From positions 124,001 to 188,000 of the forward strand of contig JBODTK010000136.1 in NCBI GenBank assembly GCA_050613775.1: DNA of 64,000 nucleotides, in the 5' to 3' direction. The number at the start of each line of letters is the position of its first letter. The first letter of the stretch is position 1. Below, one piece after another: positions 2,825 to 37,656 of the stretch. Source of the DNA: Neocallimastix sp. 'constans' (Eukaryota). A model generated the notes under the pieces. That model searched no databases, was not told the origin of the DNA, and saw only the letters and a program-made list of their open reading frames with translations. Position numbers and translations under genes: made by a program.

Positions 2825-2842
2825 AGATGCCCCGACGAAGAC

Positions 2843-9136: not shown

Positions 9137-9142
9137 TATAAA

Positions 9143-9484: not shown

Positions 9485-9521
<37 letters not shown>

Positions 9522-14656: not shown

Positions 14657-14680
14657 CCTAGTTTTGGTTACTACTTTAAT

Positions 14681-15757: not shown

Positions 15758-15841
15758 ACAATGGACTTCAACAGAAGTCCAATATAATAAAAAACACAAG
15801 AATTCTTCATTATAATTTTCCTACATTTAATAATGTAGTAA

Positions 15842-18800
15842 ATAAAAAAATTACCTTCAACTTTCCTTTTATTTGATACATATATTCCAACATCATTTTC
15901 AAATAATATAAAAAATATTAAAAATGATAATAATAAATTAAAAACTGAATCTATGTTAGATTCAGGCTCCTTCTGTAATTTTATTACAGAAGATTTAGTA
16001 AAAACTTTAAACTTGAAAAAATATAATTTAAAATCAAAAATTTTAGTCAAAGGAATTTCTGGTGATACAACCCAGATAAAGAATTATGTTTGGCTAAAAT
16101 TTCAAATTAAAATTAATGAAAATAAAAAAGTTTATTTTAAAAATTTTAAAGAAAAATTTTTAATTTCGAATTGTATTCCAACAAAATTACTTTTTGGAAA
16201 TCAATTTATGAGGAAGTTTCATATTCATTACGATTATAATAAAAACTTCCTATATTCTTATTTAGATTCTCACTTTTATAACAAAATTAATAAAAATGCT
16301 AATAAAAATCCACAATATTATTCTCGGTTTAATTCAGTGATAAAAAGATTTTTAAAAAATTATTTTTTAAAACATAAATTCATAAAAAAATTTAATTATA
16401 CAAAAAATTCAAAAAATTTCAAAAATTTTAATCAAAATAAATTAAATTTTAAACTTAATAAATATAAAAAATTTCTTCATAAAAAATTTAATTTTTTAAC
16501 CAATAAAATATTTTTTAAATTAAAAAACAATCACCAAAATAAAAAATATAAAATTAATAATAAATTTAACTATAATTATTTAATTTATTCATTTTTAACA
16601 AATAAAGAAAATTATGAAGAAGATATTGAAGATATAAAAATCGAAAATATTCCGCTTCAATATCGAGATTTGGCTGTTGTATTTAGTAAGAAAGAAGCAG
16701 ATAAACTACCGCCACATCGTTAAACTGACTGTAAAATAGTTTTAGAAAAGGATGCTTCTCTTCATTATGGACCTATCTACCCATTATCTGAAGAAGAAAA
16801 TAAAGTTTTAAAAGAATATATAGAAGAAAATTTAAAGAAGGGATTTATTAGACCTTCTGAATCTCCAGCTGGTTATCCTGTCTTATTTCAAAAAAAGAAA
16901 GATGGTTCTTTAAGATTGTGTGTGGATTACAAAAAGTTAAACGCTGTTACCATTAGAAATTCATATCCTCTTCCACTTATTAATGATATCATTGAAAAGG
17001 TTAAAAGTGCAAAATATTTCACAAAATTAGATCTAAGATCTGCCTATAACCTAATTCGTATAAAAGAGGGGGATGAATATAAAACAGCTTTTCGAACTAA
17101 ATATGGTCATTACGAATATCTCGTAATGCCTTTTGGGTTGAAAAATGCCCCAGCCACTTTCCAATCATTTATTAATTCTGTACTCAGACCTTATTTGGAA
17201 AAAAGTGTTATTTTATATTTGGATGATATTTTAATTTATTCTGAGGATTTGGAAGAACATCACAAACAAGTAAGAAGTGTATTACAAACTTTAATTAATA
17301 ATAATTTATACGCAAAATTAGAAAAATGTGAATTCGATAAAGAAAAAGTTGAATTCCTAGGTTACATTTTATCTGGTGATGGTGTATCTACTGACCCAAA
17401 GAAAATTAAATCTATAGAAGAGTGGCCAACTCCGAAAAATATTAAAGAAGTACAACGATTTTTAGGCTTATGTAATTACTATAGGAGATTTGTAAAAAAT
17501 TTTGCAAAAATAGCTAAGCCTCTCCATAATTTAACAAGAAAAAATACAAAATTTATTTGGGATACAAATTGTGAAAATTCATTTAAAATATTAAAAAGTA
17601 AATTAACTACTTCTCCAGTACTGCATCACCCAGATGTAACTAAACCATTCATAGTAGAATGTGATGCAAGTAACTATGCTATAGGTGCTGTTTTATCTCA
17701 GAAAGATGAAAATAATAAATTACATCCTGTTGCTTACTTTTCAAGAAGTTTACAAGGCTCCGAAATAAATTATACCATTACAGAAAAAGAGTTATTAGCT
17801 ATTAGAGATTCTTTCTTAACTTGGCGACATCTTTTACTTGGTGCAAAACATAAAATTACTGTCTATACTGACCATAGAAATTTAATCTATACTTTAGGAG
17901 GAAAAGTTGGTAATCAAAGACAGCATAGATGGCACTTATTCTTTCAGGAATATGATTTCCAACTTATATATAGACAAGGAACTAAAAATGGGAAACCAGA
18001 TAGTCTTTCAAGAAGACCTGACTATATGAAGAATAACGAAGATATTAAACCAGAAAATATATTAGATATTAAAAATGTAAAAGAAGTTCCCTGTTTTATA
18101 GGAATTATGAGTAATTTACTAGAAAAAATTATTGATGCTATTAAAGAAGATGCTACTGCTGAAGATATTAAATTATACTTTAGTGAAAACAATATTAAAA
18201 ATAATTATGCTTATAAACCATTTAGGAAAATGGAAAGATTTAAAATAAAAGATAATATTATATTATATAACAATTTAATTTATATTCCTGAATCACTTAG
18301 ATTAGAAATTTTAGAAAAATATCATGAAAAACCCACTTCTGGACATCTTGGTATAAGAAGAACTTTAGAATTAATTACAAGAAACTTTTGGTGGCCAAAA
18401 ATACATGAAGATGTTACAAGTTATGTTAATTCTTGTGAATGTTGTGCAAGAAACAAGGTTAATAGACATAGAAAATATGGTCTTTTACAACCTTTAGATA
18501 CTCCTGATAGACCTTGGAAGTCTATCGAAATTGATTTTCTATGTGGTCTTCCTTATTCTAAAGGATACACCGTTATTATGGTAGTTGTTGATCGTTTCTC
18601 TAAGATGATTCATTTAATTCCGTTTAAACAAATACCTGATGCCAAACAAACTGCCAAAGCTTTCATTACAAATATATTTAAACTACACGGATTGCCTTGT
18701 GATATGTATACAGATAGAGGATCTCAATTTACAAGTGCTCTTTGGAAAGAAGTAATGGAATATTTAAACATTAAATCAAAAATCGCTACAACTGACCATC

Positions 18801-19585
18801 ATGAAACAGTTGGTCAAGTTGAAAGGTGTAATTCTTTTATTGAACAATATTTAAGAGCTTACTCAAGATCATATTATCATGATGATTGGATTGAATGGAT
18901 TCACCTTGCTGAATTTGTTTATAATAACTCCATTAATGAATCTACAAAAGAAACACCCTTCTTTATTAATTATGGTTTTCATCCATCTATGGATGAATTT
19001 TTCTTATTACCTGATATTGATACTAATAATAAAATTATTAAGGACTTAAGCATGAACTTTAATCATATTAAAGATGTTTTATTAAGGTCAAAAGAACTAT
19101 ATAAAATACACGCAGATAAAAAGAGAATGCCACCTCCAATATTTAAAGAAAATGATTTAGTTTGGATACAAGCTCCTCCATCACTAAATATCGAAGATAG
19201 TTCAAAGTTAGCTCCTTGTAAATATGGACCATATAAAGTAATAGATGTTCTGAATAATCATAATTATAAAATAGATATTAAAAGGTCACCTTTTCCAAAA
19301 CATCATCCTATATTCCATGTTTCGGAGTTAGAACCTTTTATTCCAACACCTCAAAAGTTTTTAAAAAGAAGAACTCATGATGAATCTGTTAATGATATAA
19401 TTGAAATCTCAGGATTTAGAACTAATTATAAAAAGAATCAATATGAATACAGAATCAGGTATAAATATAGAACTGCTTACAATTGGGTTCCTTCAGACGA
19501 AGTTGAAAATAACCCCCGAAATCAAAATATTTATTTACAATATTTACAAAATGGAAGAAAACCTATTTCAATAGCTTATAACTAA
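15842..19585 (+). pseudogene. pol: Element E Pol (PR-RT-RH-IN-chromodomain) with in-frame stop at 16721-16723
   Basis: LDSGS, YLDD, ECDAS, HHCC, YGPY, C-terminal YEYRIRYK..NWVP chromo-like; ORFs 15953 and 16916 share a frame separated by one TAA. Confidence 0.88.
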
Positions 19586-21683
19586 AATGATAATAATAAT
19601 ATTATTATAAAAAAAAAAAAAAAAAAAAAAAAATTGGAAATTTTATTTTTTATTATTATTAATTCGTTTTTAAATTTTATTTTATTATTATCAATTTTTC
19701 AGTCAAATTTCAATTTCAAAATTTCGAAATTTTCAAAATTTTCAAAATTCAAAAACATAGCTATGTTACACTTACAACTATCAATTTATAATCAAATTTT
19801 ATTCATAAATTCATTAATTATTATAATTTTCAATTTTTTTAAAGTTAATGCATAAAATTAAAAAGTTAATTGAAATTAAAATTTCAAAATTTCAATTTCA
19901 AAAATTTTTAATCAAAAACATTTAAAAATGGTACCATCATATTCTTAAACATCAATTTTTATAACAAAATTTTAATTTTATTAAATTTTAGAAATTTCAA
20001 AATTTCAATGAAATGGTCACTTATAAAGGGTTTCCTTTTAAAATTTAAAAGGACTCAAGTGGCCTTCCTCCTTTATAAATTAAAAAAATTTTAATTTAAG
20101 AAATTTCAAAAAATTTTTAACAAAAAATTTAGTCCTCCTTATCGTTACACAAAAATCGTCTTGAATCCGATTTTTATAGGAGGGCATTGTTGAAATTATA
20201 ACTGAATTGAAATCTCAATTTCAGTTATTCACATTTCAATATACATTTAATTAATAATTAATATAAATTCTTATTTAGTATTTAAAGAATTATCTTAGGC
20301 CTAATAATTCTGAAAATATTAATAAATAAGATTTATATTAATAATTTCAATTATTTACATATGACGTCACATGTATTTATTTATATTATGTTTATATATA
20401 TGTTTATATCATATATATTAATTACTATTTTTAATTATTCAAATTAATTATACAAATTAAATTTATTTAATTATATTAAATATTTTAAACATATCGATAT
20501 TGTTATTATTTTAATATTTTATTAATATTCATTTTACTATATTATTATTATCTTATAATTAAATACTATTATTATGTAACTTACAAAGTATAAAAGAAAG
20601 ATGTAAAAATCTATCTTTTATGTTCTTTGTAAGGTTATTGTATTTACAATAATTATATACTAATAATTCAATAAATAAATATTTTCATAAATCCTTCAAA
20701 GAAATTATTATTTAAAATATTCTTAGATATTAAGTGTTTAAATAACTTAACTATTTATCTTATATTATTTTTATATTATTATTAATTAATTATTGTTGGA
20801 TTATTAATATATAATTCAACATATTAACCTAGTAACGTTATTAATCATAAAACTATTTTATATCTTAATTTTAACAATATTAAAGTAAAAAATATCATTA
20901 ACAATTATAAATAAATAATAAAAAATTGAATATTAAAATATTAGTTATAGAATATTATAAAGTTAAATAAAAATAATTAGATGTATTAAAAAATCATGTA
21001 TTAATTATATTATTTAATATTGTAAAATTTTTATATTATATTTTAATAATTTAGAAAATTTAAGCTTATTATATTTTTATTACTATATTTTTATTATTAA
21101 ATTTTTATTATTAAATTTTTATTATTAATTTTTTTATTTTTATTTTTAATCCAATCAAATAAATATTTTATTAGTATAAAAAAGAACAAAGTAACACAAT
21201 ACTTTTGTTCTCTCCCTTTTTTTCTTACGACTTTATTATTATATTATTTTTTTAATATTTTCTAAAAGTTAAATAATAAATTAAATAGTTTAAAATAAAT
21301 TAAAATTTATTAAATAGTTTTTTCTAAATTTAATGTTTTAAAAGTGTTTAATTAATAGTTTTTTGTGTTTAGTGTATAATATTAAGATAAGTATAGTATA
21401 AAATTAGTTTAGTAATAGATTAGTTGTATTAAACATTTTATAGAAATAGTAATAGATTTAGAGAAATTGTTTAGTTTAGATTAGAATAGTTTAGATTAAG
21501 ATATTAGTTTAAGTTATTTTAACTTAGTTTAGATTCTTTTAGATTAGGATAGTTTAGACTAAAATTAGAGTAGTTTATTAATTAATTTAGGTTTAGAATT
21601 AGAGAATAATATTTTAAATTTTTCCTTATTATTAGAATATATTATTTTATTAATAAAATCTTCAGATCTTGTACCATAAAATT

Positions 21684-21700
21684 TGGCGAGCTATGCAGGA
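21684..21700 (+). promoter_or_regulatory. Primer-binding site of D, tRNA-Arg-like
   Basis: TGGCGAGCTATGCAGGA 7 nt after the LTR; resembles the TGGCGAGCC-type tRNA-Arg PBS. Confidence 0.75.
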
Positions 21701-21758
21701 CCTGAAGAGATAAAATAATATGAAAATAATAATTTGAGAAAATTTTAATAATTAATAA

Positions 21759-21805
<47 letters not shown>

Positions 21806-21905
21806 AATTTAATCAATAAATAAATAATAAATAAATAATTAAATAAATAATAAGATAAATAAAATAAATAAATAAATAAATAAAATAATAATAATAAATA
21901 AATAA

Positions 21906-21960
<55 letters not shown>

Positions 21961-22004
21961 TTATTCTAAAATATTATTAATAGTAGTTATAAAAAATTAA
22001 TAAT

Positions 22005-22043
<39 letters not shown>

Positions 22044-22088
22044 TTATTTTTACTTTTTTGAGAATATTAAAATCAAAAAGTATAATAA

Positions 22089-22324
22089 TTCATATACAGT
22101 GTTTAAACCGTAAGAAAATTAATTAATAATAAGTTAGGGTGATTCCAATTTATTATTAATTAAGGTTTTTAATCGATCTCGTGAGTGCGTGAATACGTCC
22201 CAAAGTAATAATTATACTCCCCACGGCACTTTCCGTAGTTTATCAACTATCCGAGTGTTGTCAGGGTTTTTGGACAAGATCGAGCACTGGAACAATAATG
22301 AACTTATATCACCGAAGGTATAAG
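22089..22324 (+). ncRNA. Putative structured cis-RNA in the D leader (homolog in B)
   Basis: Same motifs and pairings as 8697-8913 on the minus strand. Confidence 0.7.
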
Positions 22325-22699
22325 GTTTTCTTTTTTAGAATTATTATATTAATATAAAATAAAGTCGCGTCAACAATAAATAAATCGAAATATTCAGCAA
22401 AAATTTTTTCAGTTTATTAGCAATTAAAATTTCAATTCAGTAATAGTTTAATTTTTCAATATTTAGTTATTTCAAAATTTAGTTTAATTAAGATATAAAT
22501 TTTTTTTTTAATCATTCATCCATCCATCAACTTAATAAAAATATACAATTAAAAGAATATATTAATTCATCAATTTAATAAATAAAACAATTAATAATAA
22601 TAAAAATAATAAAAATAAATTTATATAAGACATTTATCTCCTCATTCATCCATCAATTCATCAATTAAATTTTAAAAGCATTAGATTTTTTTTATCAAA

Positions 22700-23695
22700 A
22701 TGAAAATTTTAGAATTGGAAAGGCTATTACCCAGACTTAACGAAAGCGCAAGGGATGTCGATTCATGGATCGATGAATTTTCAAGAATAATGGCACTGGC
22801 AGATATCACCAATCCAAGAAGCATTCTTACCTGGGCAATGGAGTGTGTAGAAGGAAAGTTGAGGGGCACTTTACAAGAACTACATACAATAGATGAGGAA
22901 GGTAATGAACATTTTCCATCAATGAGAGAAATAAAAGAAGCAATTGAAAATTCATTAGAAGTAACTCCACAAGAGAAATGTAAAAGACTACAACGAATGA
23001 AAATTCAAAGAGGAGAAAGCATAAAAAACTTTAATTGGAGATATAGGAAAATTTATAACAGTCTACCAAAATTGTACCAAACATTTATAACAATAGAAGA
23101 TTATGCTGATTCGATTATCTACCGTCCTTATGCTAGATCACAAGTAATAACACAACGATGTATAGATCTTGAAGATGCTTTTGAAGAAGCAGAGTTAGCT
23201 GAAAGAGCTGAAGAAGGAGGAAATCTTAGAAATGAAACCGTGATGATGACAGTATTTAATTCTCAACCATTCTATTACCGAAGTAACACTCATCCATTTA
23301 AGCAATTCAATTCTCCAAGTTATAATTATAATTATAATGGAAGACAATTTTACATTAAGAAAACTCCTCGAAATTATACAAATTATAATGAAAATAGAGA
23401 ATTTACAACTAATAATTTTAATACTAAATTCAATTCTAAAAATGAAATTATGCAAAGTAATAATTTAGAAAATACCACACAAAATATTAAAGATAGTAAA
23501 ATAAGAAATAACTTGGTAAATAATGAAATCAAACAAGCCAGAAATACATTTAATTCTGAGAAATCCCATATTATTTGTTACCGTTGTGGACAACAAGGAC
23601 ACATTTATAAACTATGTCCTTATTCCTTTAAAGAATTTGCTAAACTAAGAAATCAAAATAATACAATAAATTCAAACAATCATTTAAACTTCTAA
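22700..23695 (+). CDS. gag: Element D Gag with CCHC knuckle
   Basis: CYRCGQQGHIYKLC; ends HLNF over T TTA AAC. Confidence 0.93.
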   Translation: MKILELERLLPRLNESARDVDSWIDEFSRIMALADITNPRSILTWAMECVEGKLRGTLQELHTIDEEGNEHFPSMREIKEAIENSLEVTPQEKCKRLQRMKIQRGESIKNFNWRYRKIYNSLPKLYQTFITIEDYADSIIYRPYARSQVITQRCIDLEDAFEEAELAERAEEGGNLRNETVMMTVFNSQPFYYRSNTHPFKQFNSPSYNYNYNGRQFYIKKTPRNYTNYNENREFTTNNFNTKFNSKNEIMQSNNLENTTQNIKDSKIRNNLVNNEIKQARNTFNSEKSHIICYRCGQQGHIYKLCPYSFKEFAKLRNQNNTINSNNHLNF

Positions 23696-26600
23696 ACGGG
23701 AGAAGGGAAACTCCCAGTAATCAAACCAATGATGAAATAGTAGCTACTGCAGTTAGAAGAAAAGGAAAACAAGTTTTTGAAAAACCATATTCAAGAGATA
23801 AAAGAAAACAAAATGAAAATAAAGTAAATGATAATATTTCTAATTCTAATAATATCATACAAGAAGATAATGAAGATATAGAAATTGAAACCAACGAAAT
23901 AAATACAATATCTAACACTCCTATAAATGAAACCGAAAGACTTGAGGAGATTGATGTGTCAGTTATTGCGCAACCCTCAATCAACAAAGCTAAACGAAAT
24001 TCAAAGAAACAAAAAGAAAAAGAAATATTAGAAAGCACTAAGAATCTCGAGGTTAGTTCTAATAAAGAATCTAGAGTTAAACTTCCAAGTGTAGAATTAG
24101 AAGAGAAGAAAGTTAAAACCAACAATCCCAATAAACAAATAACCATTATGGAAGGTCAATCAAAATATGATATTTGTAAAGACATAAGTACTAGGTTTGC
24201 TAATATTACATTACCTCAATTATTGGATGTTAGTCCTAAACTCCGTGCTGATATTGTAAAGGCCTTAAAATTAAAAACTACAGAAACAATTAAAGAGACT
24301 CCTGAAGAAGTTGTATTATCTGCTATACGTAGGGAAGATGTTGCTACAGTTGAATGTTTAATTAATGGAGTCCAAGGTATTGCATTTTTAGACACAGGCG
24401 CAAGCATTAATATTATTACTAGACAATTTTTAAACAAGTTAGGAGATGTAAAACCAATTGGATTTGTTAAAAATAATATTGTTCAATTATTATCTAAAGA
24501 GAATGTTAATACTGAAATCTACTTGCTAAAAGTTCAACTTGGAGATTTAGCTATTCATGATATATTCCGAGTTATAGATAATCACCAAAACCTATTTGAT
24601 GTTTTAATTAGCTATAAAACACTTAAAGAAAATAATTTATTTATTAATCCTATTAATAATAATTTGTGCATAATGAAAGAAAATAACAAATGGATGTGTG
24701 TCAAAAATCTTTGCAAAGAAGAGAAAGGAAATGTTATTAGTGATGATGAAGATGCTGAATCAATAATTATATATGATAAAACAAATTCTGATATTAATAA
24801 TAATTCCTATCTTTATTGCTTTGTTAATGAAATTGATAATATTAATGATAACTTAACAATAACTCAAAATAAAATAGAAGACTCTAAAACAATAACTAAA
24901 GAAGTAGATATCATTAATGAAAATGGTGTTTTTGAAAAAGATCAACTCCTGCAAAATATACTTAAAGGAATTCCAAAAAAGCTAAGAAATGAAGTAAAAA
25001 AGTTATTTGATGAATATAATACTATTCTTGCCACAAAAATTGATGAGTTAAAACCAACTAAATTGTTACCTCATAGTATTCAACTCGAGCCTAACGCTAA
25101 ACCGATTAAACAGAGATGTTATCGACTTTCTAAAGTTCAAGCATTAGCTCTTAAAAAGGAATTAGAAAAACTTATAAAAAATAAACTAATTGAACCATCA
25201 CACTCCCCTTGGTCTTCTCCCGTTATTTTAGTGCCTAAGAAAAATAAACAGTGGAGAATATGTATAGATTTTCGAAAACTAAACAATCTTACTATTAAAG
25301 ATGCATATTCGTTACCGCTTATAGATGAAATTTTATTTTCTATCGGGAAAAAAGTTAAAGTTTTTACTACGATTGATTTATTTTCGGGATTTCATCAGAT
25401 CCCTATGAACAAAGAAGATATTCCTAAAACTAGCTTTGCTACAATGTATGGTAACTATCAATTCTTAGTTATGCCCTTTGGTTTATGCAATGCCCCAGGT
25501 ACTTTTCAAAGGGAAATGAATAGAATATTCTTTCCTCTTATTGGAGTATGCATGTTTGTTTATATCGATGATCTAGTTATATTTTCACCCTCCTTTGAAC
25601 AACATATTATAGATATTAAGAAAGTGTTTGATATTATCAAAGAAAATGGATTAAAAATTAACTTAGAAAAATGTCATTTTTTTAAAATAAAAGTCGAATT
25701 GTTAGGACATACTTTATCAATTAATGGTATTTCCCCTATTCAAGCTAAAGTTCAAGTCATATTAGAATGGATACCACCAAAAAATGTTACACAATTACAA
25801 TCTTTCCTTGGTGCAGTGGGTTATTACCGTAAATTTATTCTTAACTTCGCTAATATAGCAAAACCATTATTTAAACTTGTTAAAAAAGGTGTAAAGTTTG
25901 TCTGGGGTAAAGAACAAGAAGAAAGCTTTAATGAGTTGAAACTAAAATTAGCATCTGCTCCTATTCTTGTTATGCCTGACTTTGAAAAACAATTTATAAT
26001 CAGAACGGATGCCTCTTTCGATGGTATTGGAGGTGTTTTACTTCAGAAAGATGAGAATGGTATTGAAAAGCCAATTCACTTCGTAAGTCGCTCTTTAAAA
26101 CCGGCGGAAAAGAATTATTCAATAACTGATCTTGAAGGAACTGCCGCGACTTACTGCGTTCAAAAATTTAAATCTTATATTTCTGGAAATAAATATGAAA
26201 CTCTTTTATTCACCGATCATAAACCTTTAGTTGGACTTTTCAAAAATAAAGAAACTAACAATTCTAGACAAACTCGATGGGTATTACTTCTATCAATGCT
26301 AAAAGTTAAAGTCTTATATGAACCTGGAAAGAAAAATGTCATCGCTGATGCACTTTCTAGATTATCAACAAAAGAAAATACAATATTAACAACTGTTACT
26401 GAAGAGATAAATGAAAATAATCCGTATAACTTACTTACAAAATTTAAAGATAAATTTACAATAATTAATAACGAAGAATATTATAAAGACCATGGAAAAC
26501 TTAGAAAAGTTATAAAAAATCAAAACGAAAAAATTGATTTAATACTAAAAGCTCACAAAGTTGGTCACGAAGGAGTATTTAAAACTTACAATAGACTTAA

Positions 26601-27594
26601 ACGTGACTACTATTGGATCAACATGATACTTGACGTTAAATACATTGTCAGAACTTGTGATAGGTGTCAACACTTTAGATCGCAATCTTTTAATAACCAA
26701 ACAGAAGATATTGCTACTCAACCTGGTTTACCATTTACGAAAGTTGGCTTGGATATAGTAGGTCCACTTCCTACTTCAAGAAAAGGAAATAAATATATAA
26801 TAGTTTTAGTAGATTACTTAACAAAGTGGGTTGAAGCAGAACCAACCCAAAATATTGATTCAGATGATGTAATAGAATTTTTATCCAAGATTTTTGCTCG
26901 ATTCGGAATACCAGAAATATTAGTAACTGATAACGGTCCACAGTTCTGTTCTGATAAAACAAAAGCATTCTTAGACTTATATGGTGTTTATGTTAACTTC
27001 GTTGTTACTTATCATCCAGAATCTAATGGTCAAGTAGAAAATCGAAACAAAGAGATAGGCAAATACCTTAGATTACTTTGTAATAAAAATACATCAATAT
27101 GGGATGAAATGCTACCTAGTGCTTTATGGGCCTTGCGTACTTGTAAAAATGAAACAACTAAATTTTCAAGTTTTGAATTGTTATATGGCCGACGTGACCT
27201 TCAGCCGTTTGAATTACAATTAAACTTAGATAAAAAGGAAAATTATGAAAGTGATGATGAATTTTTAATTAGAAGATTTACAAAACATTATAAATGGATC
27301 AAGGAAGCCATAAATAATATTCAAACAGCAAACAAAATCTGGGAAGATAGAAGAAAACAAGTAAAAAGACTTAAAGCTAATTATAAACCAGGAGATCTAG
27401 TATTAATTAAATATATTAATAGAAGAAAACTTGATCCATACTTCTTAGGTCCTATGAAAATTGTTAAAAAACAATTCAATACTGTAACGTTATGTGATCC
27501 ATTAACAAACGAAATTGCTGAAAGAAATGTCCACTTAAAGAATATTATACCTTATAGACTATGCGAAATTGAGACTTCAAGGGACGAAGTCTGA
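23683..27594 (+). CDS. pol: Element D Pol (PR-RT-RH-IN), -1 frame
   Basis: FLDTGA, YIDD, RTDAS, HHCC, DDE; frame open from the slippery site. Confidence 0.95.
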   Translation, partial: FKLLNGRRETPSNQTNDEIVATAVRRKGKQVFEKPYSRDKRKQNENKVNDNISNSNNIIQEDNEDIEIETNEINTISNTPINETERLEEIDVSVIAQPSINKAKRNSKKQKEKEILESTKNLEVSSNKESRVKLPSVELEEKKVKTNNPNKQITIMEGQSKYDICKDISTRFANITLPQLLDVSPKLRADIVKALKLKTTETIKETPEEVVLSAIRREDVATVECLINGVQGIAFLDTGASINIITRQFLNKLGDVKPIGFVKNNIVQLLSKENVNTEIYLLKVQLGDLAIHDIFRVIDNHQNLFDVLISYKTLKENNLFINPINNNLCIMKENNKWMCVKNLCKEEKGNVISDDEDAESIIIYDKTNSDINNNSYLYCFVNEIDNINDNLTITQNKIEDSKTITKEVDIINENGVFEKDQLLQNILKGIPKKLRNEVKKLFDEYNTILATKIDELKPTKLLPHSIQLEPNAKPIKQRCYRLSKVQALALKKELEKLIKNKLIEPSHSPWSSPVILVPKKNKQWRICIDFRKLNNLTIKDAYSLPLIDEILFSIGKKVKVFTTIDLFSGFHQIPMNKEDIPKTSFATMYGNYQFLVMPFGLCNAPGTFQREMNRIFFPLIGVCMFVYIDDLVIFSPSFEQHIIDIKKVFDIIKENGLKINLEKCHFFKIKVELLGHTLSINGISPIQAKVQVILEWIPPKNVTQLQSFLGAVGYYRKFILNFANIAKPLFKLVKKGVKFVWGKEQEESFNELKLKLASAPILVMPDFEKQFIIRTDASFDGIGGVLLQKDENGIEKPIHFVSRSLKPAEKNYSITDLEGTAATYCVQKFKSYISGNKYETLLFTDHKPLVGLFKNKETNNSRQTRWVLLLSMLKVKVLYEPGKKNVIADALSRLSTKENTILTTVTEEINENNPYNLLTKFKDKFTIINNEEYYKDHGKLRKVIKNQNEKIDLILKAHKVGHEGVFKTYNRLKRDYYWINMILDVKYIVRTCDRCQHFRSQSFNNQTEDIATQPGLPFTKVGLDIVGPLPTSRKGNKYIIVLVDYLTKWVEAEPTQNIDSDDVIEFLSKIFARFGIPEILVTDNGPQFCSDKTKAFLDLYGVYVNFVVTYHPESNGQVENRNKEIGKYLRLLCNKNTSIWDEMLPSALWALRTCKNETTKFSSFELLYGRRDLQPFELQLNLDKKENYESDDEFLIRRFTKHYKWIKEAINNIQTANKIWEDRRKQVKRLKANYKPGDLVLIKYINRRKLDPYFLGPMKIVKKQFNTVTLCDPLTNEIAERNVHLKNIIPYRLCEIETSRDEV

Positions 27595-27611
27595 ACTTAG
27601 GGGTGGCATCA

Positions 27612-28457
27612 TGTTACGGTACAATTAAATAAAGAAAAATTAAACTATTTAAAGAAAATATTAAAGTAAAAAATATCATTAACAATTATAAATAAATAAT
27701 AAAAAATTGAATATTAAAATATTAGTTATAGAATATTATAAAGTTAAATAAAAATAATTAGATGTATTAAAAAATCATGTATTAATTATATTATTTAATA
27801 TTGTAAAATTTTTATATTATATTTTAATAATTTAGAAAATTTAAGCTTATTATATTTTTATTACTATATTTTTATTATTAAATTTTTATTATTAAATTTT
27901 TATTATTAATTTTTTTATTTTTATTTTTAATCCAATCAAATAAATATTTTATTAGTATAAAAAAGAACAAAGTAACACAATACTTTTGTTCTCTCCCTTT
28001 TTTTCTTACGACTTTATTATTATATTATTTTTTTAATATTTTCTAAAAGTTAAATAATAAATTAAATAGTTTAAAATAAATTAAAATTTATTAAATAGTT
28101 TTTTCTAAATTTAATGTTTTAAAAGTGTTTAATTAATAGTTTTTTGTGTTTAGTGTATAATATTAAGATAAGTATAGTATAAAATTAGTTTAGTAATAGA
28201 TTAGTTGTATTAAACATTTTATAGAAATAGTAATAGATTTAGAGAAATTGTTTAGTTTAGATTAGAATAGTTTAGATTAAGATATTAGTTTAAGTTATTT
28301 TAACTTAGTTTAGATTCTTTTAGATTAGGATAGTTTAGACTAAAATTAGAGTAGTTTATTAATTAATTTAGGTTTAGAATTAGAGAATAATATTTTAAAT
28401 TTTTCCTTATTATTAGAATATATTATTTTATTAATAAAATCTTCAGATCTTGTACCA
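27612..28457 (+). repeat. 3' LTR of element D
   Basis: TGTTAC...GTACCA; uninterrupted copy with a single ATATT at the E target site. Confidence 0.95.
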
Positions 28458-28461
28458 ACTG

Positions 28462-28946
28462 TGATAAGAATGTACTAAATAATGCATTCTTAATTAAATC
28501 TACGATTTATTTCTAATACATTATGTGTACATTATTATTTTTGTACTTTAATAAATTTTTAAATCCAAAGATCAAAAATTAAATCAAAAATTATATTAAA
28601 CTTTATATTTTTATATTAAATCTTATATTAATAGTAATATTTTTATATATTTAAAACTTATATTAGCAATATTAATAATAAATCTTATTTTTTTATTTTT
28701 ATATTAATAATGAAAATTTGTATTAATAATATTTTTATATATTGATGATTAAAAATTTATATATTATATTTTAACTTTTATTATAAAATTTTATATCGAA
28801 ATGTTTTATTTTATATTGAAAAATATTTTATTTTATTAAAAACCTTTATATTAGAATAGTATTTTTATTTTTATTTGAATATTTTAACAGATTGTAATAA
28901 AATTTATAGCCAATTAAATAAATTCTTATTAGTAATATTTTAGATA

Positions 28947-29003
<57 letters not shown>

Positions 29004-29317
29004 TTTTATTAATATTATAAATGTATTTTATTTATATTGTTATAATTAAATTTTATATAATTGATTATAAAATTCAATTTAAATTTAATAGTTTTTATAA
29101 AAAAAAAAAAAAATAAATAAAATGTAATTTAGTGGCAAGAACAACTTTTATGCCTTGAAAAAAAGTATAAATAGTTGTAAATTTTGTTACCAATTTTTAA
29201 AAAATCATCAAATAAAATCAAATAAATTTAATAAAATAAATAAATAAAATAAATAAATAAATAAATAAAATTTGTGTTTCTTACTTTATTTTTATTTAAT
29301 TCTCTAAAACCTTAACA
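28462..29317 (+). mobile_element. Solo LTR of the A/B family
   Basis: Homologous to 1102-1952; flanked by ACTG (28458-28461, 29318-29321); no PBS follows. Confidence 0.9.
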
Positions 29318-29340
29318 ACTGAAGATTTCGTTACATTAAC

Positions 29341-29497
29341 AATAATTTTATTTATTCGTCAAACAGAGTGTTTGGAATAAAAGATTCATTAATATTACAA
29401 AAATTTTTATTTATTCGTCAAACAGAGTGTTTGGAATAAAGGATTAATTAATATTATAACAATATTATTTTTTTTTTTTTGTTAAACAGAGTGTTTG
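29341..29497 (+). repeat. Three ~59 bp tandem hairpin repeats in the G leader
   Basis: Core TTTATTCGTCAAACAGAGTGTTTGGAATAAA twice plus one degenerate copy. Confidence 0.85.
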
Positions 29498-29674
29498 AAA
29501 AAAAAAAAAATAAATTATACTATTTACAATTAATATATTTAATATATATATATAAATTTTTTTTTTACGAATACTTGGTAGTTTTGTTACTTTTCTTTAA
29601 TCAAACTACTTAAAATAAAATATTAATAAATAAATTAAATTCAAATTAGTTAAATACTAAAAATTCTGGTAAAA

Positions 29675-30592
29675 ATGAGTAACATTCATTTCAGAGAACT
29701 AAAGAAAAAATTAAAGGATATCGAAAAATTGTCTAAGGACAATTTAGATATCAAGACCTGGTGTTCTGATCTTGAACTTTGGGTAGAACTTGGTGAAGTG
29801 ACAGATGAAAGAAAAATTTTCTTGGCTTGCGTTTTAACTTCAACAGGAGAACCGAGACAAATTATTCAAGAACTCGGAAATCAAATTAATACCAATGATA
29901 GTTCAATTGACAATGATGAAGAAGATAGCTCTTCAGGCTCGGAATCTTCATCTGAAAAGTATTATCCTTCCTTACAAGAGATAACTAATGCATTAGAAGA
30001 ATTTTATGGCACTAAAGAAGACCAAAATAATTTATTAAGGGAATTACGGTCTTTAAAAATAAAAAGAAATGAAAGGGTAAAGGATTTTAATGTCAAATTT
30101 AAAACCTTATACTTAAAACTAGATAAAAAGAGAAAAAGACATGTCAGTGTATTAGATTATGTTGATGCTTTAGAAAACAACCAAGAAGCTTGGAAACGAG
30201 TAGCATTGGAAGATGATTTAACTCTCTCAAAAGCTTATCAAATCGCTGAAAAGGTAGATCGTTTGCAAAATAGGTCAACTCAAGGAAGTACCCAACCAAG
30301 GCAAAATTTTACAACTAATAATTCTTTTTCTAATAACTATTCTCGTTCTAATCTTAGAAGTAGTAATACTAACAATTATAATAACCAAAAAAGTTTTGAT
30401 AAATTAAGAATTGAAAGGTCTAAAGAAGGAAAAGAAATGGAGGATTTAACAAGAAAAATGAAAAATCTAACTATCAAAGCATGTTATTTCTGTAAAGAAC
30501 AAGGCCATTTTCAGAGTAACTGTCCCAAACTTCGTAAAATTATACAGAAAAACCGGGAAGAATTAATTCAAGATGATCATTTAAATCAGTAA
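29675..30592 (+). CDS. gag: Element G Gag with CCHC knuckle
   Basis: CYFCKEQGHFQSNC; clear homology to B gag. Confidence 0.93.
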   Translation: MSNIHFRELKKKLKDIEKLSKDNLDIKTWCSDLELWVELGEVTDERKIFLACVLTSTGEPRQIIQELGNQINTNDSSIDNDEEDSSSGSESSSEKYYPSLQEITNALEEFYGTKEDQNNLLRELRSLKIKRNERVKDFNVKFKTLYLKLDKKRKRHVSVLDYVDALENNQEAWKRVALEDDLTLSKAYQIAEKVDRLQNRSTQGSTQPRQNFTTNNSFSNNYSRSNLRSSNTNNYNNQKSFDKLRIERSKEGKEMEDLTRKMKNLTIKACYFCKEQGHFQSNCPKLRKIIQKNREELIQDDHLNQ

Positions 30593-33500
30593 GAGGGAGT
30601 AGAAGCTCTCCCATTGTCAATAAAACAGCTTCATTAAAATACCATCAAGAATCAATTGATAAAGAGTTTAGTAATATTAAAGAAATATTAGATTCAGAAA
30701 ATTTTAAAAATTCCAACCATTTAATAGCGGCTATGACTAGGAATTCAAAGAGAAAAAGTGACCAAGTGGATAGCATTACACATGAAAGTGGAAGGAAGAG
30801 AAGTCATAGAAGCTTAAAGGACAATCCTATTACTATTTTAACTCCTACCTTAAGGAAGAAACAAGAAGAAGAAATGACTAGTAAAACTCCACAAGAAAAG
30901 TATAAAAATCAAGTCAGCCCTTCTATACTTACTGAGCCTAGGATTGAAAAAGAAAAGATGAAAGAAAAAGCAATTCGTGATAAAGAACGAGCAGAGACAA
31001 ATCAAATCTTAGATTCCGATTTCACTAAAGAAAATGTTACTGAAGGAAATAAGAGTGACCAAAATCTTGGAAACCATATCTCCTTGACAAGACTTATTAA
31101 TGATCAACTTCCTAAAGACAACATTCCGGAAAACAAAAATATAAGAATATCCAGAAAAATACAAATGCAAATAAATAAAGAACCTTATGATGTAATTGAA
31201 GATTTAAATAAGACTCAATGTAATATTACGTTTGGACAACTTCTGGATGTATCACCTAAAATACGTACGCAAGTGTCTCATGGTCTTAGATTAGAAAGGA
31301 ATCAAACTAAGGTTACTGGTGTAGTGGATAACTTATCTGCAACCACTGTTATGGTAAATAACATAGAACATACTTATAAAAGTCGAAGTCGTGAAGCACA
31401 AGAAGATGATGTGGCTATGGTAGATATTACGGTAGATGGTGTTAAAGGAAAAGCATTAGTTGATTCTTGTAGTAATTTAAGCATAATTACTAAACAGTTT
31501 CTAGATAAACTTCCTAATAAATATGAACCTATTGGAATTAGTTGTGGTAGGATTCGACTAGCTACCAGGAATGATGATTATTCTGAAAGCTATATTCTAA
31601 AAATTCCTATACAAATTAATAAATTCAAAATGATTGTTGACTGTAGATTAGTTGAAAAAGAAGATCCATTTTATGATGTTCTTATTAATCTGAAAACTCA
31701 AATTGATCACCAATTATTTATTCATCCTATACTATATAGCCTATGCCAGTTTACTCCTACTGGGTTGATTAATGTTATCACACCCATTAATAATGATATA
31801 GAAGAAGAAGAAAAATTGGTATGTGTAGTAAGAGCTATTAATTCTAATAGTGAACTAGAAAAGAAGAACTTAGAAAAGTTAGAAGGTTTACCTCCTATAG
31901 AATACATTCATCACGAAAAGTTTAAAAATACTCTTAATAAAAATTATGTTGATGAAATTATTCTTCTACTTGAAGATAATATTGAAATAATTGCTACATC
32001 TACTGAAGAACTTACTCCTTCTAAATTATCTCCGCACAAAATTATATTAAAAGCCGGAGTAAGACCTATTAAACAAAGATTCTACCGTTTAACCAAATTA
32101 AAATCTGACATTTTAAAAGAAGAACTAACCAAATTGATTGAAAAGAAACTTATTGAACCTTCGTACTCTGAATGGTCTTCACCAGTAGTCCTTGTACCGA
32201 AGCCTAACGGTAAATGGAGATTGTGTATAGACTATCGCAAGGTTAATGATGTCACTGAAAAAGACTCCTATACCTTACCAAATATAGATGAAATTTTTGA
32301 TAGCCTCGATGGTGCTAAAATATTTACTACACTTGACCTTTATTCTGGCTATCACCAAATCTTAATGGACGAAGAAAGCGTTGAGATAACTAGCTTTACA
32401 ACCAAGTTTGGAAACTATCAGTTCAAAGTTATGCCTTTTGGATTAACTGGAGCACCTGCTACATTCCAAAGGGAAATGAACAAGATCCTATTTCCACTTA
32501 TCGGAAAGTGTGTGTATAACTTTATTGATGATATTTTAATTTATTCTGGTACCATCGAAGAACATCTAGAGCATATTAAAGAAGTTCTTAAGATTTTTAA
32601 AAAGTATCATTTAAAAATTAATATTGAAAAATGTAAATTTATGCAAACTGAAGTAGAAGTACTTGGCCATAAATTAACTACAGAGGGTTTAAGTCCCATG
32701 GATAGTAAAGTTGAAGCTATTAGAAACTGGAAATCTCCTACTAATGTTCATGAGCTCAGATCTTTTCTGGGAGCAGTTGGTTACTATCGTAATTTTGTTA
32801 ATAAATATTCACAAATTTCAGCACCTTTATGCAAACTTTTAAAGAAAGGGGAAAAATATATTTGGAATAAAGAACAAGAAGAAAGCTTTAAATCACTTAA
32901 AGAGGGTTTAATTAATGCACCTATATTAAAGTTTCCGCAATTTGACAAAGAATTTATAATAAGAACTGATGCCTCTTACGATGGAATAGGCGGAGTACTC
33001 CTGCAAAAAGATGAAGAAACAAAGATTGAGCATCCGGTTCACTATATTAGTAGAACCTTAACTAAATCGGAGAAGAATTATGGAATTACTGATTTAGAAG
33101 GTGCTACACTATATTATCGTTTAACTAAATTGAAACCTTACATTATAGGTAATCCCATTAAAACCATCATATATACGGACCATAAACCATTAATAGGTTT
33201 ATTTAAAAATAAAGAACCACATAATGCAAGACAAACTCGTTGGTGTCTAACTGCAAGTATGCTAGGAGTTGAGATAAGGTATGAAAGTGGCAAGAAAAAT
33301 GTCGTTGCTGATGCTCTCTCCAGAATGAAAAATGAAAGTAATAAAGTTGTTTTAGCTACCAATATTAATTCTGAAATTGATGAAACCCTGTTATCTAAAG
33401 TAATCAAGGAATTTCTTGAAGAAAAATTTACTGTTATTGATGGAGTTGAATATTTTATCGATGGAAATAATTATCGTAAATTAATAACCAATACTGAAGA

Positions 33501-34545
33501 AAAATTAAAACTTATTTTTGCAGCACATAACGTAGGTCATGAAGGATACTACAAGACATATCAAAGGTTAAAAAGATGTTATTATTGGAATAATATGATC
33601 AGCGATGTCAAGAGGGTAGTTAGTAAATGTGAGAAATGTCAACTGAACCGCCCTCAACCATATCCTAATCCAACTGAAGGAATTCCAACCCAAGTTGAAG
33701 GACCATTTGTACATATGGGTCTGGATATCATAGGTCCGTTGGTTCAAACGAGAAATAAAAATCAATATTTAATAGTAATGGTAGACTATTTCACTAAGTG
33801 GGTGGAAGCCGAACCTACAGAAACTATCACTGCAATGGATGTAATAAAATTTCTTATTAATGTATTTTCGAGGCATGGGATTCCACAGGTGATTACTACT
33901 GATAATGGAGTACAATTTACTGCGGACATGACTAAAATATTTCTTGATCTTTATGATGTCTATGTTAAGTTTACCTCAACCTATCATCCTGAGAGCAATG
34001 GCTTAGTAGAAAACAGAAATAAGGAGATAGGCAAATTATTGAGATTGCTAGGAACTAAATATAAGGATTGGGATGAAATCCTCCCTTCCGCTTTATGGGC
34101 TTTACGTACTACTAAAAACAATGTAACAAAATATTCTAGCTTTGAACTTGTGTATGGTCGTGAAGATCAGCAACCCTTTGATATTGCAGCTCGTCCAACG
34201 AAAGATACCAAAGGAAAAACATCAGATGAAATAATACTTGAAAAATTTATTAATCATTATAGATGGACATTAGAAGCTGCCGAAAATGTCAAAAATGCCA
34301 ACAAATATTGGGCAATTCGTAGACAAGAGAAAAATAGTATGAACAAAGGAAAAAGCATTAATCCTGGAGATTTGGTTCTGGTAAGAAATCTATCTAGAAC
34401 TAAGTTGGAGCCTTACTTTGTAGGTCCCTTGAAGGTTATAAAGAAACAATTTAATACAGTTACTTTAGCAGATCCTAATTCAGGCGTACAATTGAACAGA
34501 AATGTTCATTTAAAGAATATAGTAAAGTATAACTCAGCTTCATGA
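30580..34545 (+). CDS. pol: Element G Pol (PR-RT-RH-IN), -1 frame
   Basis: LVDSCS, FIDD, RTDAS, HHCC, DDE; open from T TTA AAT at 30580. Confidence 0.95.
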   Translation, partial: FKSVRGSRSSPIVNKTASLKYHQESIDKEFSNIKEILDSENFKNSNHLIAAMTRNSKRKSDQVDSITHESGRKRSHRSLKDNPITILTPTLRKKQEEEMTSKTPQEKYKNQVSPSILTEPRIEKEKMKEKAIRDKERAETNQILDSDFTKENVTEGNKSDQNLGNHISLTRLINDQLPKDNIPENKNIRISRKIQMQINKEPYDVIEDLNKTQCNITFGQLLDVSPKIRTQVSHGLRLERNQTKVTGVVDNLSATTVMVNNIEHTYKSRSREAQEDDVAMVDITVDGVKGKALVDSCSNLSIITKQFLDKLPNKYEPIGISCGRIRLATRNDDYSESYILKIPIQINKFKMIVDCRLVEKEDPFYDVLINLKTQIDHQLFIHPILYSLCQFTPTGLINVITPINNDIEEEEKLVCVVRAINSNSELEKKNLEKLEGLPPIEYIHHEKFKNTLNKNYVDEIILLLEDNIEIIATSTEELTPSKLSPHKIILKAGVRPIKQRFYRLTKLKSDILKEELTKLIEKKLIEPSYSEWSSPVVLVPKPNGKWRLCIDYRKVNDVTEKDSYTLPNIDEIFDSLDGAKIFTTLDLYSGYHQILMDEESVEITSFTTKFGNYQFKVMPFGLTGAPATFQREMNKILFPLIGKCVYNFIDDILIYSGTIEEHLEHIKEVLKIFKKYHLKINIEKCKFMQTEVEVLGHKLTTEGLSPMDSKVEAIRNWKSPTNVHELRSFLGAVGYYRNFVNKYSQISAPLCKLLKKGEKYIWNKEQEESFKSLKEGLINAPILKFPQFDKEFIIRTDASYDGIGGVLLQKDEETKIEHPVHYISRTLTKSEKNYGITDLEGATLYYRLTKLKPYIIGNPIKTIIYTDHKPLIGLFKNKEPHNARQTRWCLTASMLGVEIRYESGKKNVVADALSRMKNESNKVVLATNINSEIDETLLSKVIKEFLEEKFTVIDGVEYFIDGNNYRKLITNTEEKLKLIFAAHNVGHEGYYKTYQRLKRCYYWNNMISDVKRVVSKCEKCQLNRPQPYPNPTEGIPTQVEGPFVHMGLDIIGPLVQTRNKNQYLIVMVDYFTKWVEAEPTETITAMDVIKFLINVFSRHGIPQVITTDNGVQFTADMTKIFLDLYDVYVKFTSTYHPESNGLVENRNKEIGKLLRLLGTKYKDWDEILPSALWALRTTKNNVTKYSSFELVYGREDQQPFDIAARPTKDTKGKTSDEIILEKFINHYRWTLEAAENVKNANKYWAIRRQEKNSMNKGKSINPGDLVLVRNLSRTKLEPYFVGPLKVIKKQFNTVTLADPNSGVQLNRNVHLKNIVKYNSAS

Positions 34546-34571
34546 TAGCTTGAGTCTTCGTCGGGGCATCT

Positions 34572-35315
34572 TGGTAAAGAATGATTATAAATTACTTATT
34601 TTGTTATGTTTAGACATAACTTAACCATAATTAAGTTTATATTCTTTACTAATGGAACTTTCTTATATTCTTCCCTGAATTAAATTAAAAATTTTATTAT
34701 ATAGTATTATAAATTAATTAAAATTATTATAATATTAATTAAAATTTTTATAAAAATATTTTTTATAAAATCATTACTGAATCTTAATTAAATTAATATT
34801 AAAATACATATAAACTCTTCAAAAATTTATATTAACAAATTCTTTATTGAATCTATATTAAAATTATTTTATATTTTTATTATATTTTTATCAAATTAAT
34901 TATTATTAACTTTCAATAACATTATATATTAATATTAATTTTTATTAAACTTAAAATAAATTATCATTAAATAATTTATTATCTTTTACCAAATTCAATT
35001 AATATTTTTGTAAACTTTTAATTAAAAATTTTATTAAAAACTTTTTAATTATTTACTCCAGATATTATTTAATTAAAATCTTTATAATATCTTTTTAAAT
35101 AATAATTTTTTTTATTCCTTTATGGAATTTATATTAAACATATTATTAATAATTTTATTTAACATTTAATTAAGAATGAATTAATAATTCTTTTAATTAA
35201 ATACTTAAATTCTTTTTCATTTCCAAGATATTAAACTTTAAAAATGAAATCGAATATAAATATCTGAAGAAAATAACTTCTTCTAAAAAAAAAAAAAAAT
35301 AAAATAACACAAAAC

Positions 35316-35359
<44 letters not shown>

Positions 35360-35600
35360 TAATAATAATAATAAAATAAAAATAGTAATAATATTAGTAA
35401 TAATATAAGTAATAGTATTAATATTAATATTAGGAATAGTAATAATTTAGCTAATAAAATTTAATTAGTTTAATAAATAATGTAATTACTTTAAAAATTA
35501 AATAAATAAATAAATTATAAAATTGTTATTGTGTAAATAAATATTTTAAATCTTTATCTTTTGTGTGTAAAAATTTTGTTTTTCCCAATGAACCATAACA
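34572..35600 (+). repeat. 3' LTR of element G (right boundary 35600 or 35616)
   Basis: Left boundary by analogy with the A/B PPT; ...CATAACA fits the clade TA-N-CA terminus. Confidence 0.65.
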
Positions 35601-35616
35601 TGAAGATTTCGTTACA

Positions 35617-36459
35617 ATACCATATAATAAAAGCATCAAAGGTATCCGCCTTTGATTTTAGGAATATAACCCATCCATAACGAGAATAATCATCTAAAAT
35701 GGAGAGAAAATATTTGTTACCATATATAGATGGTTCTGATGAACTCACAAGATCCATGTGAATTAATTCAAAGGTGCCTTTAGTTTTATTTTCAGACCTA
35801 GGATATTGAAAATTTTTAAGTTTTGCTCTTGAGCAAATAGGACACTTTTGTTTAATGGGTATATCCTTTAGTTTCTCTTTAATAAGGTCAATATTAAAAT
35901 GACCCATTCTTCTGTGCCATAATTCAAGATTATTATTTGATGCATTCTCTAAATTATAGCAAACAATAGATTTTTTATTAAAATTTAAATTTTTTAATGT
36001 TGTATATAATTTGTATGTTTTAGAATCATTTGAAAATATTGTACAAATTTTATTCTTTACTTTATTATACAATGTAACACAATTTTTATTATTGCATTTA
36101 TAAAAAATTATTTTATAATTTTTATTTATAAGTTGATCAATTGAGATGAGATTTCTTTTGAATTCTGGAATATATAAAACATTATTAAGTTTGATTTTTG
36201 TATTGTTAACGTATCCAATGTATTGTCCAATAGATTTCGCTATGACGTATTCCCCCGTAGCAAAGTAAATTAATCTATGTATCCTTTTGACGTTAGTAAG
36301 TATGTTTACATCATTTGTCATATGATACGATGCACCAGAATCCAGTGTCCAACATTGTACGCTATTGTTATTGAAATCTTCATCTATGTTATTTTGTATA
36401 TTGTCAACAGTATAGTATTGATAACTGTGTTGCAATATACCTTGCTTATCTAAAAATTT
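35617..36459 (-). CDS. pol: Copia Pol N-terminal part (protease, GAG-pre-integrase, start of integrase core), truncated
   Basis: WTLDSGASYHM, LWHRRMGH, CPIC, LIHMDL, DDYSRYGWV; homology stops at IIWY. Confidence 0.9.
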
Positions 36460-37532
36460 ATATGTTTGTTTTTGTTGAATTTTTGATCCCTTTGTTTACC
36501 TTTGCAATTATTCAATACTATAGCTAAGTTATTTTGATTCTCCTCATTATTATTGTAATCAGCTGTAAATGCCTCTGAATAAGAGTCATCATATCCCTTA
36601 TCTTCTGCATTATTAGCTTGATATCTTCTTCTTTTGTTGTATCTTTTGTTGTGATTAGGAGATTGATGTTCATTTTTATTTATATATTTGCCTTTACTTT
36701 TCCTTGTTATTTGTTTTTCAGGACAATATTTTGCGATATGTCCTCTTTTATTACATTTATAACAAATAACATTATTTGTTCTGTTGAAACTATTATATTT
36801 TTTAAAGTTATTATTTTTATTATAGCTGTATAGAGCCATACCTTGTGTTTTCTTGATTTCTTTATCTTTCAATTGTTTTAATCTTGGTACGGACTTTATC
36901 ATATGGGAGCAACACTTATCCCAGTCATCTTGATATTCCATCATATTTGATTTAGATTGAATATCATCAGGTAAAGCAGACCATAAATAATCAAATTTTT
37001 CATCTGAGGATGGTTCCGCATTCAATTCCCTTAACTTATTGAATTTATTTATCATATTTGAAAGAAATAAGTTGAAATCTTCATTTCTATCGTATTTCAT
37101 TTCATCTAATTCATTTTTTATTTCGGTCTTTAATGCATTATTACTTTTCTTAAAACTAATTTTAATATTATTCCAAATATCATAAGAAGACTTTTCCTCG
37201 AAGCCAACCTTCATAAGTAATTCATCAGATATATTCTCACTGATAAGCCATTTTGCTTTACAGTCTTCTTTAATCATGTCTTTTGTTATTTTCTTTTTGT
37301 AATATTTATCACTGGTTCCAATTACCTTAATCAGTCCTTCCTCGTACTCGGAATCAGTTTTATTAATCTTTGGTAGCATATCTTTCTCAATGCATTCCTC
37401 AAGACCATTTATGATAAATAATAGTTTCATCTTAATTGCCCAAACTTCATAGTAGTCACAATCAATTTCCAACTTCTTGAATGTGCCATTTGAGTTGTTT
37501 GTTATGAACTTATCAATTTTGAAGTTTGACAT
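36450..37532 (-). CDS. gag: Copia Gag with CCHC knuckle (likely start MSNFKID)
   Basis: YEVWAIKMK, ALP, CYKCNKRGHIAKYC; the ORF-track start at 37640 is a TTG. Confidence 0.85.
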   Translation of the reverse strand: MSNFKIDKFITNNSNGTFKKLEIDCDYYEVWAIKMKLLFIINGLEECIEKDMLPKINKTDSEYEEGLIKVIGTSDKYYKKKITKDMIKEDCKAKWLISENISDELLMKVGFEEKSSYDIWNNIKISFKKSNNALKTEIKNELDEMKYDRNEDFNLFLSNMINKFNKLRELNAEPSSDEKFDYLWSALPDDIQSKSNMMEYQDDWDKCCSHMIKSVPRLKQLKDKEIKKTQGMALYSYNKNNNFKKYNSFNRTNNVICYKCNKRGHIAKYCPEKQITRKSKGKYINKNEHQSPNHNKRYNKRRRYQANNAEDKGYDDSYSEAFTADYNNNEENQNNLAIVLNNCKGKQRDQKFNKNKHINF

Positions 37533-37641
37533 TTTAAATTGAAATTTCAAAAAATAATTAAAACTTGTAATTCTTAAAAAATAATTAAATATACTAATTT
37601 TGTTATTTTGAATATATTGTAAAATATTTTTAAAGCTCAAA

Positions 37642-37656
37642 ATGAGACTCTTAATC
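37642..37656 (-). promoter_or_regulatory. Copia PBS complementary to the tRNA-Lys(CUU) anticodon arm
   Basis: Plus-strand ATGAGACTCTTAATC abuts the LTR. Confidence 0.75.

Follow-up and report, generated by a model that had tools for sequence, protein, structure and literature searches.

Mobile elements can be the fixed targets of other mobile elements, as is the case for the Tx1-type and Zepp non-LTR elements (LTR, long terminal repeat), which cut their targets with a sequence-specific endonuclease. Base-precise targeting by the integrases of LTR retrotransposons is known mainly at RNA polymerase III (Pol III) start sites. In the available part of a structural report on Ty3, the SH3 fold of its integrase touches TBP and a Brf1-binding chromodomain lies behind that fold (10.1101/2021.07.27.453949). 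Same-site double insertions are described for Drosophila, including those of the P element, jockey and hobo and the R1 tandems, in the accessible text of McGurk and Barbash (10.1101/158386), and a Ylt1-like, non-chromoviral gypsy group of fungi is named in the available part of PMC3248453. Here we describe a locus of Neocallimastix sp. 'constans' (contig JBODTK010000136.1; the window is the whole 64,000-nucleotide (nt) stretch analysed, and all positions are window coordinates) in which five gypsy elements are stacked beside one short tip of a further sequence, termed H, and in which another gypsy element, G, has entered a second copy of that tip.

Results

The base-precise stacking at a shared tip is real. 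The stack comprises five elements of three families (S1, S2, E, F and a solo S LTR), in both orientations, and the spacers that follow them read, from left to right, TTG, ATTG, ATTG, ACTG and ACTG. Three of the four inner junctions, and the right end, have 4 bp, and the S1-S2 junction has 3 bp, an arrangement like that of arrays built by same-site double insertion. All five elements occupy one 4-bp register, one of them offset by +1, and G lies at +2 in the second tip; four families of one clade are represented. If hits were spread uniformly over an LTR of 500-1000 bp, 0.5-1% of them would land no more than 2 bp from any given site; five insertions within one base, together with a sixth at +2 in the other copy of the tip, cannot be random. 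Element B, which belongs to another clade, sits at an unrelated site and has a 5-bp duplication.

The families S, G, E and F have the features of LTR retrotransposons, i.e. TG...CA LTRs, a polypurine tract (PPT), a primer site after the 5' LTR and a short target duplication, save that no primer site is left in E; the putative transfer RNA (tRNA) identities of the primer-site motifs are Ala-like and Arg-like. No substitutions separate the paired LTRs of S2 (867 matched bases), F (846) or B (690), and one, at the deletion joint, separates those of E, so the stack is young. The LTRs of the three S copies differ from one another by 1.4-2.9%, so these copies are separate insertions rather than local duplicates, and the inverted S1/S2 pair is not a read fold-back, because 24 of 1101 coding bases differ between its members.

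The right end of the stack adjoins a 16-mer that an earlier note on this DNA had reported at 29320-29335 and at 35601-35616, and exact copies are present at both. Scanning of both strands revealed no third exact copy in the window (GC content 23.6%), in which 5.6e-5 second exact copies are expected under an order-3 Markov model. From left to right, the first junction consists of the end of the solo S LTR (29317), ACTG, AAGATTTCGTTACA and then a remnant of the G leader. As the note had stated, copy 1 runs into the middle of the G leader without a TGG primer site (339 bp of leader are left before the gag ATG, versus 1396 bp in S2), and copy 2, which abuts the end of the G LTR (35600), runs into the integrase of a Copia element, which lies on the minus strand and is broken in the integrase core. 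The AC ahead of copy 1 is better described as part of a 4-bp ACTG that recurs at 28458-28461 on the left of the solo S LTR; as ACTG flanks that LTR on both sides, the AC belongs to its target-site duplication. The terminal GTTACA is common to both tips at the points where the G leader and Copia start, and thus places a CA terminus at a sharp insertion boundary.

The 16-mer is neither the end of the G LTR nor part of the G leader, S or Copia, and both of its right boundaries are sharp. Contigs of four public runs (X10, X14, X4 and X20) were compared with positions 35448-36100, and public contigs also with 29272-29760. One X10 contig departs from the window at 35601 and, six bases on, reads the primer-site-like TGGTGGAGATATCGGGG, in a layout as in S2; two X4 contigs depart at the same base, with a mixed consensus (agreement 0.68) that partly agrees with X10. 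Depth in the bin 35580-35601 is 3395 in X10, 1215 in X14 and 779 in X4, and in the bin 35602-35623 it is 0, 25 and 0, respectively, with none in X20 for either bin. The G LTR in public contigs terminates in ...CATAACA (35600), and the note's expectation that this ending would be followed by a primer site is borne out by the primer-site-like motif. One X14 record begins to fit the window at 35617, after 14 letters that do not fit. Left of 29335 the native leader of G has another repeat unit and no 16-mer, as shown by a joint in X10 (depth 286) that leads back to 29335 from 29504 and by a loose end in X4 before 29335. The integrase motif was recognised in 30 of 32 Copia homologs, and these extend beyond the WY where the 16-mer takes over in the window. 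Being foreign to G, S and Copia, the 16-mer is assigned to a further sequence, H.

Outside this locus, too, S ends are followed by ACTG. The first X10 record, which is 402 nt long and has a depth of 387, matches 29292-29345 apart from two other letters and one gap, and beyond that at least 255 of its letters differ from the window; it is likely repeated (for scale, depth in X10 is 245 on the G gag contig and 36-39 on the thinnest Copia contigs). The ACTG beside the tip is likely H's own, because it is common to this record. In X4, a contig passes from the S end through ACTG into an LTR-like start, TGATAAAGAAT, with no H tip. The X10 source may be kin of the window's strain. As a separate observation, the summed contig depth at the S LTR end (29272-29322) is about 211,000 in X10, versus 245 on the G gag contig, so that S LTRs look extremely abundant.

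The pol order of S, G, E and F (reverse transcriptase (RT), RNase H, integrase) is that of Ty3/gypsy. A quick 60-row tree of the RT-RNase H part (two loci were dropped for lack of an alignment, and a named reference chromovirus was not among the rows) places these four inside a 48-row clade (Shimodaira-Hasegawa-like approximate likelihood ratio test, SH-aLRT, 99) and B in a separate 5-row clade (100). The integrases, in a profile that included B, align with Ty3 Gag-Pol through residue 1445 of 1547; those of S, G, E and F stop 3-13 residues past the SH3 fold, whereas Ty3 carries about 100 more, and neither a Ty3-type nor a chromovirus chromodomain follows the fold. The main Ty3 targeting module is therefore missing from them. 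The nearest named homologs of the G pol are Orpinomyces models (50-56% identity), with unnamed metagenome proteins reaching 99%, and the public runs that match the stretch are mostly faecal metagenomes. The internal part of F is 99.75% identical to L151 over 4012 bp. AT-rich contigs of these retrotransposons (L145-L156) also occur in five prokaryote genomes, where they represent fungal repeat contamination of bins. At least three primer-site motifs, with a spacer of 2-9 nt, are found in the clade members L146, L150 and L154, which points to a change of primer among its lineages.

The H end resembles LTR ends of the clade, such as that of E, and H is probably the LTR of another family, or possibly the end of a DNA transposon. 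The possibility that the 16-mer copies a tRNA primer site was rejected, as it has no TGG start and is unlike the motifs of S, F and G, and a minus-strand H in which the tip would be the start of a 3' LTR is disfavoured, as the letters past the tip in the first X10 record have no PPT on that strand. Searches for H elsewhere returned chance matches. The 16-mer occurs at 26 loci in viral_contigs and at least 118 in metagenome_contigs, and blastn of these 144 against the window gave three weak rows and no gut-fungal locus. The best match, L017, agrees in 28 of 30 bases; it is part of a 572-residue phage open reading frame (ORF) and was rejected as chance, and related-locus scans of viral_contigs gave no relative. 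Thirteen loci in prokaryote genomes with stray fungal contigs include clade members and no H tip; in five such genomes an H-tip pattern had 12 matches, all with one or two mismatches, versus seven for the control, and the downstream motif was found in none of the five. Among further genomes, 2 of 301 and 2 of 401 matched; two of these four matches are prokaryote coding DNA, and the other two are on long prokaryote contigs.

Table 1. Elements, spacers and tips at the stacked locus, in window coordinates
Feature	Position	Strand	Remarks
S1, 3' part of S-family gypsy	1..1952	+	integrase ORF 1-1083, PPT, 3' LTR 1102-1952; extends beyond window
3-bp spacer TTG	1953..1955	+	ATTG when last A of S1 is included; one-base offset
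S2, full-length S element	1956..10009	-	primer-site motif 6 nt past 5' LTR
4-bp spacer ATTG	10010..10013	+	
E, gypsy, internal deletion	10014..13902	+	5' LTR end, primer site, gag and protease gone
4-bp spacer ATTG	13903..13906	+	
F, full-length gypsy	13907..28457	+	mismatched flanks: ATTG left, ACTG right
B, gypsy of another clade	13958..20876	+	nested 51 bp into F 5' LTR; 5-bp duplication ATATT; outside stack register
4-bp spacer ACTG	28458..28461	+	
Solo S LTR	28462..29317	+	ACTG on both sides
H tip 1	29318..29335	+	ACTG duplication + 14 bp ending CA; not G, S or Copia sequence
G, without 5' LTR and upstream leader	29336..35600	+	59-bp leader repeats, gag ATG 29675 (ORF to 30592), pol 30577-34545, PPT, 3' LTR 34572-35600
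H tip 2	35601..35616	+	16-mer; G entry two bases right of tip 1 register
Copia, gag and pol to integrase core	35617..37655	-	break exactly at 16-mer

Several elements have further features of their own. The deletion in E (10455-10490) joins LTR and pol at a 10-bp microhomology and leaves a 948-codon RT-RNase H-integrase frame open. Immediately upstream of the PPT, E (13358-13377) and F (27573-27592) have an exact 20-mer in common that contains a short inverted repeat, and a similar motif is present in L152 and L154. Tandem repeats of 40 bp precede gag shortly in the S2 leader (7928-8116), and those of 59 bp in the G leader span 29337-29505; the 40-bp unit of S2 holds nine bases of the 16-mer, likely by chance. 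Element B has gag, protease and RT in three separate ORFs and lacks a primer motif of the tRNA type; the 5' LTR ends in 13 bases whose complement lies within that LTR, at 14399-14411, presumably a self-priming layout as in Tf1.

Elsewhere in the window, a GC-richer piece at 38960-39235, which has inverted ends and in which CATTTCGCCA-like motifs recur, resembles a miniature inverted-repeat transposable element. Genes for an F-BAR and an L21e protein lie at 44407-48882 and 52011-52499, and 53949-63672 contains at least two RT copies like those of long interspersed nuclear elements, one of which retains an intact 1293-codon endonuclease-RT ORF.

Discussion

On balance we favour the reading that the two 16-mers are right ends of H, that the integrases of one gypsy clade are held 14-18 bp inside that end, and that repeated insertions there have built the stack. 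A broader form, to be taken as tentative, is that a whole chromodomain-less gypsy clade of gut fungi has a base-precise safe harbour in the terminal 18-bp region of another mobile element; its integrases would be tethered to that end, and its families would compete and stack there at one bond. The earlier note's second model, in which the LTR tip of H is a landing pad, stands in respect of the G LTR end and of the foreign 16-mer, but collection scans did not return the intact H LTRs ending in the 18-mer; its assertion that no mutations are needed is slightly too strong, given the mismatched duplication of F.

In this favoured scheme, each insertion would duplicate the 4-bp site and leave the positioning signal intact. 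The signal would lie inside H, to the left of the register, and because it is left of the stack the newest element would be leftmost (first solo S, then F, E, S2 and S1). The ATTG spacers could then reflect a single C-to-T change at the left copy of F, passed on leftward, and, given the same order, the 3-bp spacer of S1 could be a +1 insertion requiring no mutation. The opposite order of insertion also fits the window alone. The wobble of 1-2 bp suggests a tether at a distance, i.e. a protein bound to H, more than a reading of the four bases themselves, and the target may be either H itself or an S LTR edge that H already carried.

Several points weigh against the favoured reading. H is known from two tips only; its body was not recovered in any collection scan, and the window holds nothing of it to the left of ACTG. 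The duplication of F is mismatched even though its LTRs are identical, which may be the product of a repair error, of recombination, including between two stacks, or of a mis-join of two loci. The first X10 record, in which the places of the two differences and the gap are not reported, need not be a junction of LTR and leader: the TGG primer motif is absent from the 30 loose letters printed for it, which may not bar an LTR, as element B likewise lacks one. As a single unbranched contig of high depth, it fits one amplified composite as well as it fits many separate hits, and contig depth, by the tool's own warning, is not copy number. The loose-end evidence comes from among the contig matches listed, there being 63 further loose-end rows for 35448-36100 and 211 for 29272-29760; no contig listed in the four runs crosses junction 2, which is not read as absence.

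The strongest rival is that the clade targets the edges of any clade LTR. S would have hit an H tip once, the composite of H and solo S would have been amplified, and later elements would have joined S edges, with F, E, S2 and S1 on the left and G, two bases off, on the right of an S that would since have been lost or lie upstream. The unbranched X10 contig, in which S end, ACTG and 16-mer share a common downstream, would follow from such amplification, and the X4 contig, in which S end and ACTG meet another LTR-like start, is likewise consistent with it; moreover, three inner junctions have the form CA-A[CT]TG-TG, a symmetric context that each insertion rebuilds. However, an S LTR beside G at junction 2 has to be assumed, as there is none in the window, and symmetric context is lacking both at the site of B and in the 14 bp to the right of ACTG. 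A composite LTR should also yield many unlike-flanked 3' ends, tending to break the contig at the end of the 16-mer. We consider this rival unlikely; even under it, integrases that seek LTR edges would be unusual.

Less probable again is a simpler history with the same targeting, in which a single H inserted in Copia would have supplied both tips, as the ends of its 5' and 3' LTRs; the stack would have entered the 5' tip and G the 3' tip, a deletion at a microhomology having joined the 5' tip to the middle of the G leader. The fit of the first X10 record extends 10 bases beyond the 16-mer, up to 29345, which may reflect microhomology with the G leader, and the deletion in E, also near an LTR end, is of a similar kind. 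These 10 bases, however, are AT-rich and may contain the record's two differences and gap, and a break exactly at the CA end is the outcome of plain insertion, with no extra assumptions.

A Ty3-like arrangement, in which a Pol III gene or promoter in H just left of the stack would let TFIIIB hold the integrases at its start site, seems improbable. The narrow window, the use of both orientations and the stacking do resemble what the available part of PMC5911963 describes for tRNA-gene-targeting gypsy elements, and the SH3 part, which contacts TBP in Ty3, is present. By contrast, the window has no tRNA gene or credible RNA family (two Rfam matches are far below threshold), although the side on which the gene would sit is outside it; the integrases are without the Brf1-binding chromodomain of Ty3; the duplication is 4 bp, versus 5 bp for Ty3 in the accessible text of PMC5014426; and ordinary tRNA 5' flanks would not yield a 16-mer with a sharp common end.

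Chance or an assembly artefact is very improbable, in that chance accounts for about 6e-5, 16 bases are too few for a mis-join and the S-ACTG-16-mer junction is found in public-run contigs, even if the mismatched flanks of F could reflect a mis-join through its 846-bp identical LTR and junction 2 is unbridged in the four runs. The earlier note's first model, that the 16-mer is G's own LTR end, accounts for its position after the G LTR at junction 2 and before the G leader at junction 1, but is refuted, given that this LTR stops at 35600 ahead of a primer-site-like motif, that X10 and X4 have zero cover over the 16-mer and that the native leader differs from the window left of 29335.

The kind of finding is in part familiar, in that same-site insertion is known; the base-precise variant at a shared tip is new. 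As in the Drosophila double insertions (available part of 10.1101/158386), neighbours are parted by one copy of the target duplication and the site survives to be reused. The Drosophila cases in that text, however, are mostly dimers of single families, whereas the present stack has five LTR elements, which come from three families and point both ways, and a fourth family lies at the corresponding register in a second copy of the target. With the nested LTR retrotransposons of plants, as covered in the accessible part of PMC6911290, the locus shares non-random insertion of LTR elements into LTR elements; in that part, by contrast, LTRs are the least-hit regions and similar pairs lie at least 50 bp apart, whereas the present sites agree within 2 bp. 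With Ty3 and the Pol III-targeting gypsy elements it shares the domain order, a window of 2-3 bp and insertion in either orientation, as far as the available parts of PMC5911963 and 10.1101/2021.07.27.453949 describe them. Differences from Ty3 are that there is no Pol III gene in the window, no C-terminal chromodomain and a duplication of 4 bp, and that the shared sequence has an end in CA, like that of a mobile element, and sits inside other transposons.

Arrays of LTR-sharing elements likewise place several LTR elements at one locus, but those elements have LTRs in common and no inner duplications, whereas every member of the present stack comes with LTRs of its own and a 4-bp spacer. The present elements also differ from the Tx1-type and Zepp elements in using a DDE integrase. 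A literature search that included few subscription journals found no account of how LTR elements of gut fungi choose their targets, or of an LTR element directed to a single position within the end of another repeat. Anaerobic gut fungi have repeat-rich genomes, and, if the favoured reading is correct, thousands of copies could accumulate in them without damage to genes. A native site-specific integrase would also be useful in fungi for which gene insertion tools are reportedly scarce. It would, moreover, follow a new targeting rule, directed at one bond inside the end of another repeat without the chromodomain on which Ty3 relies, and would thereby provide a transposon-on-transposon counterpart to the targeting of tRNA genes by Ty3.

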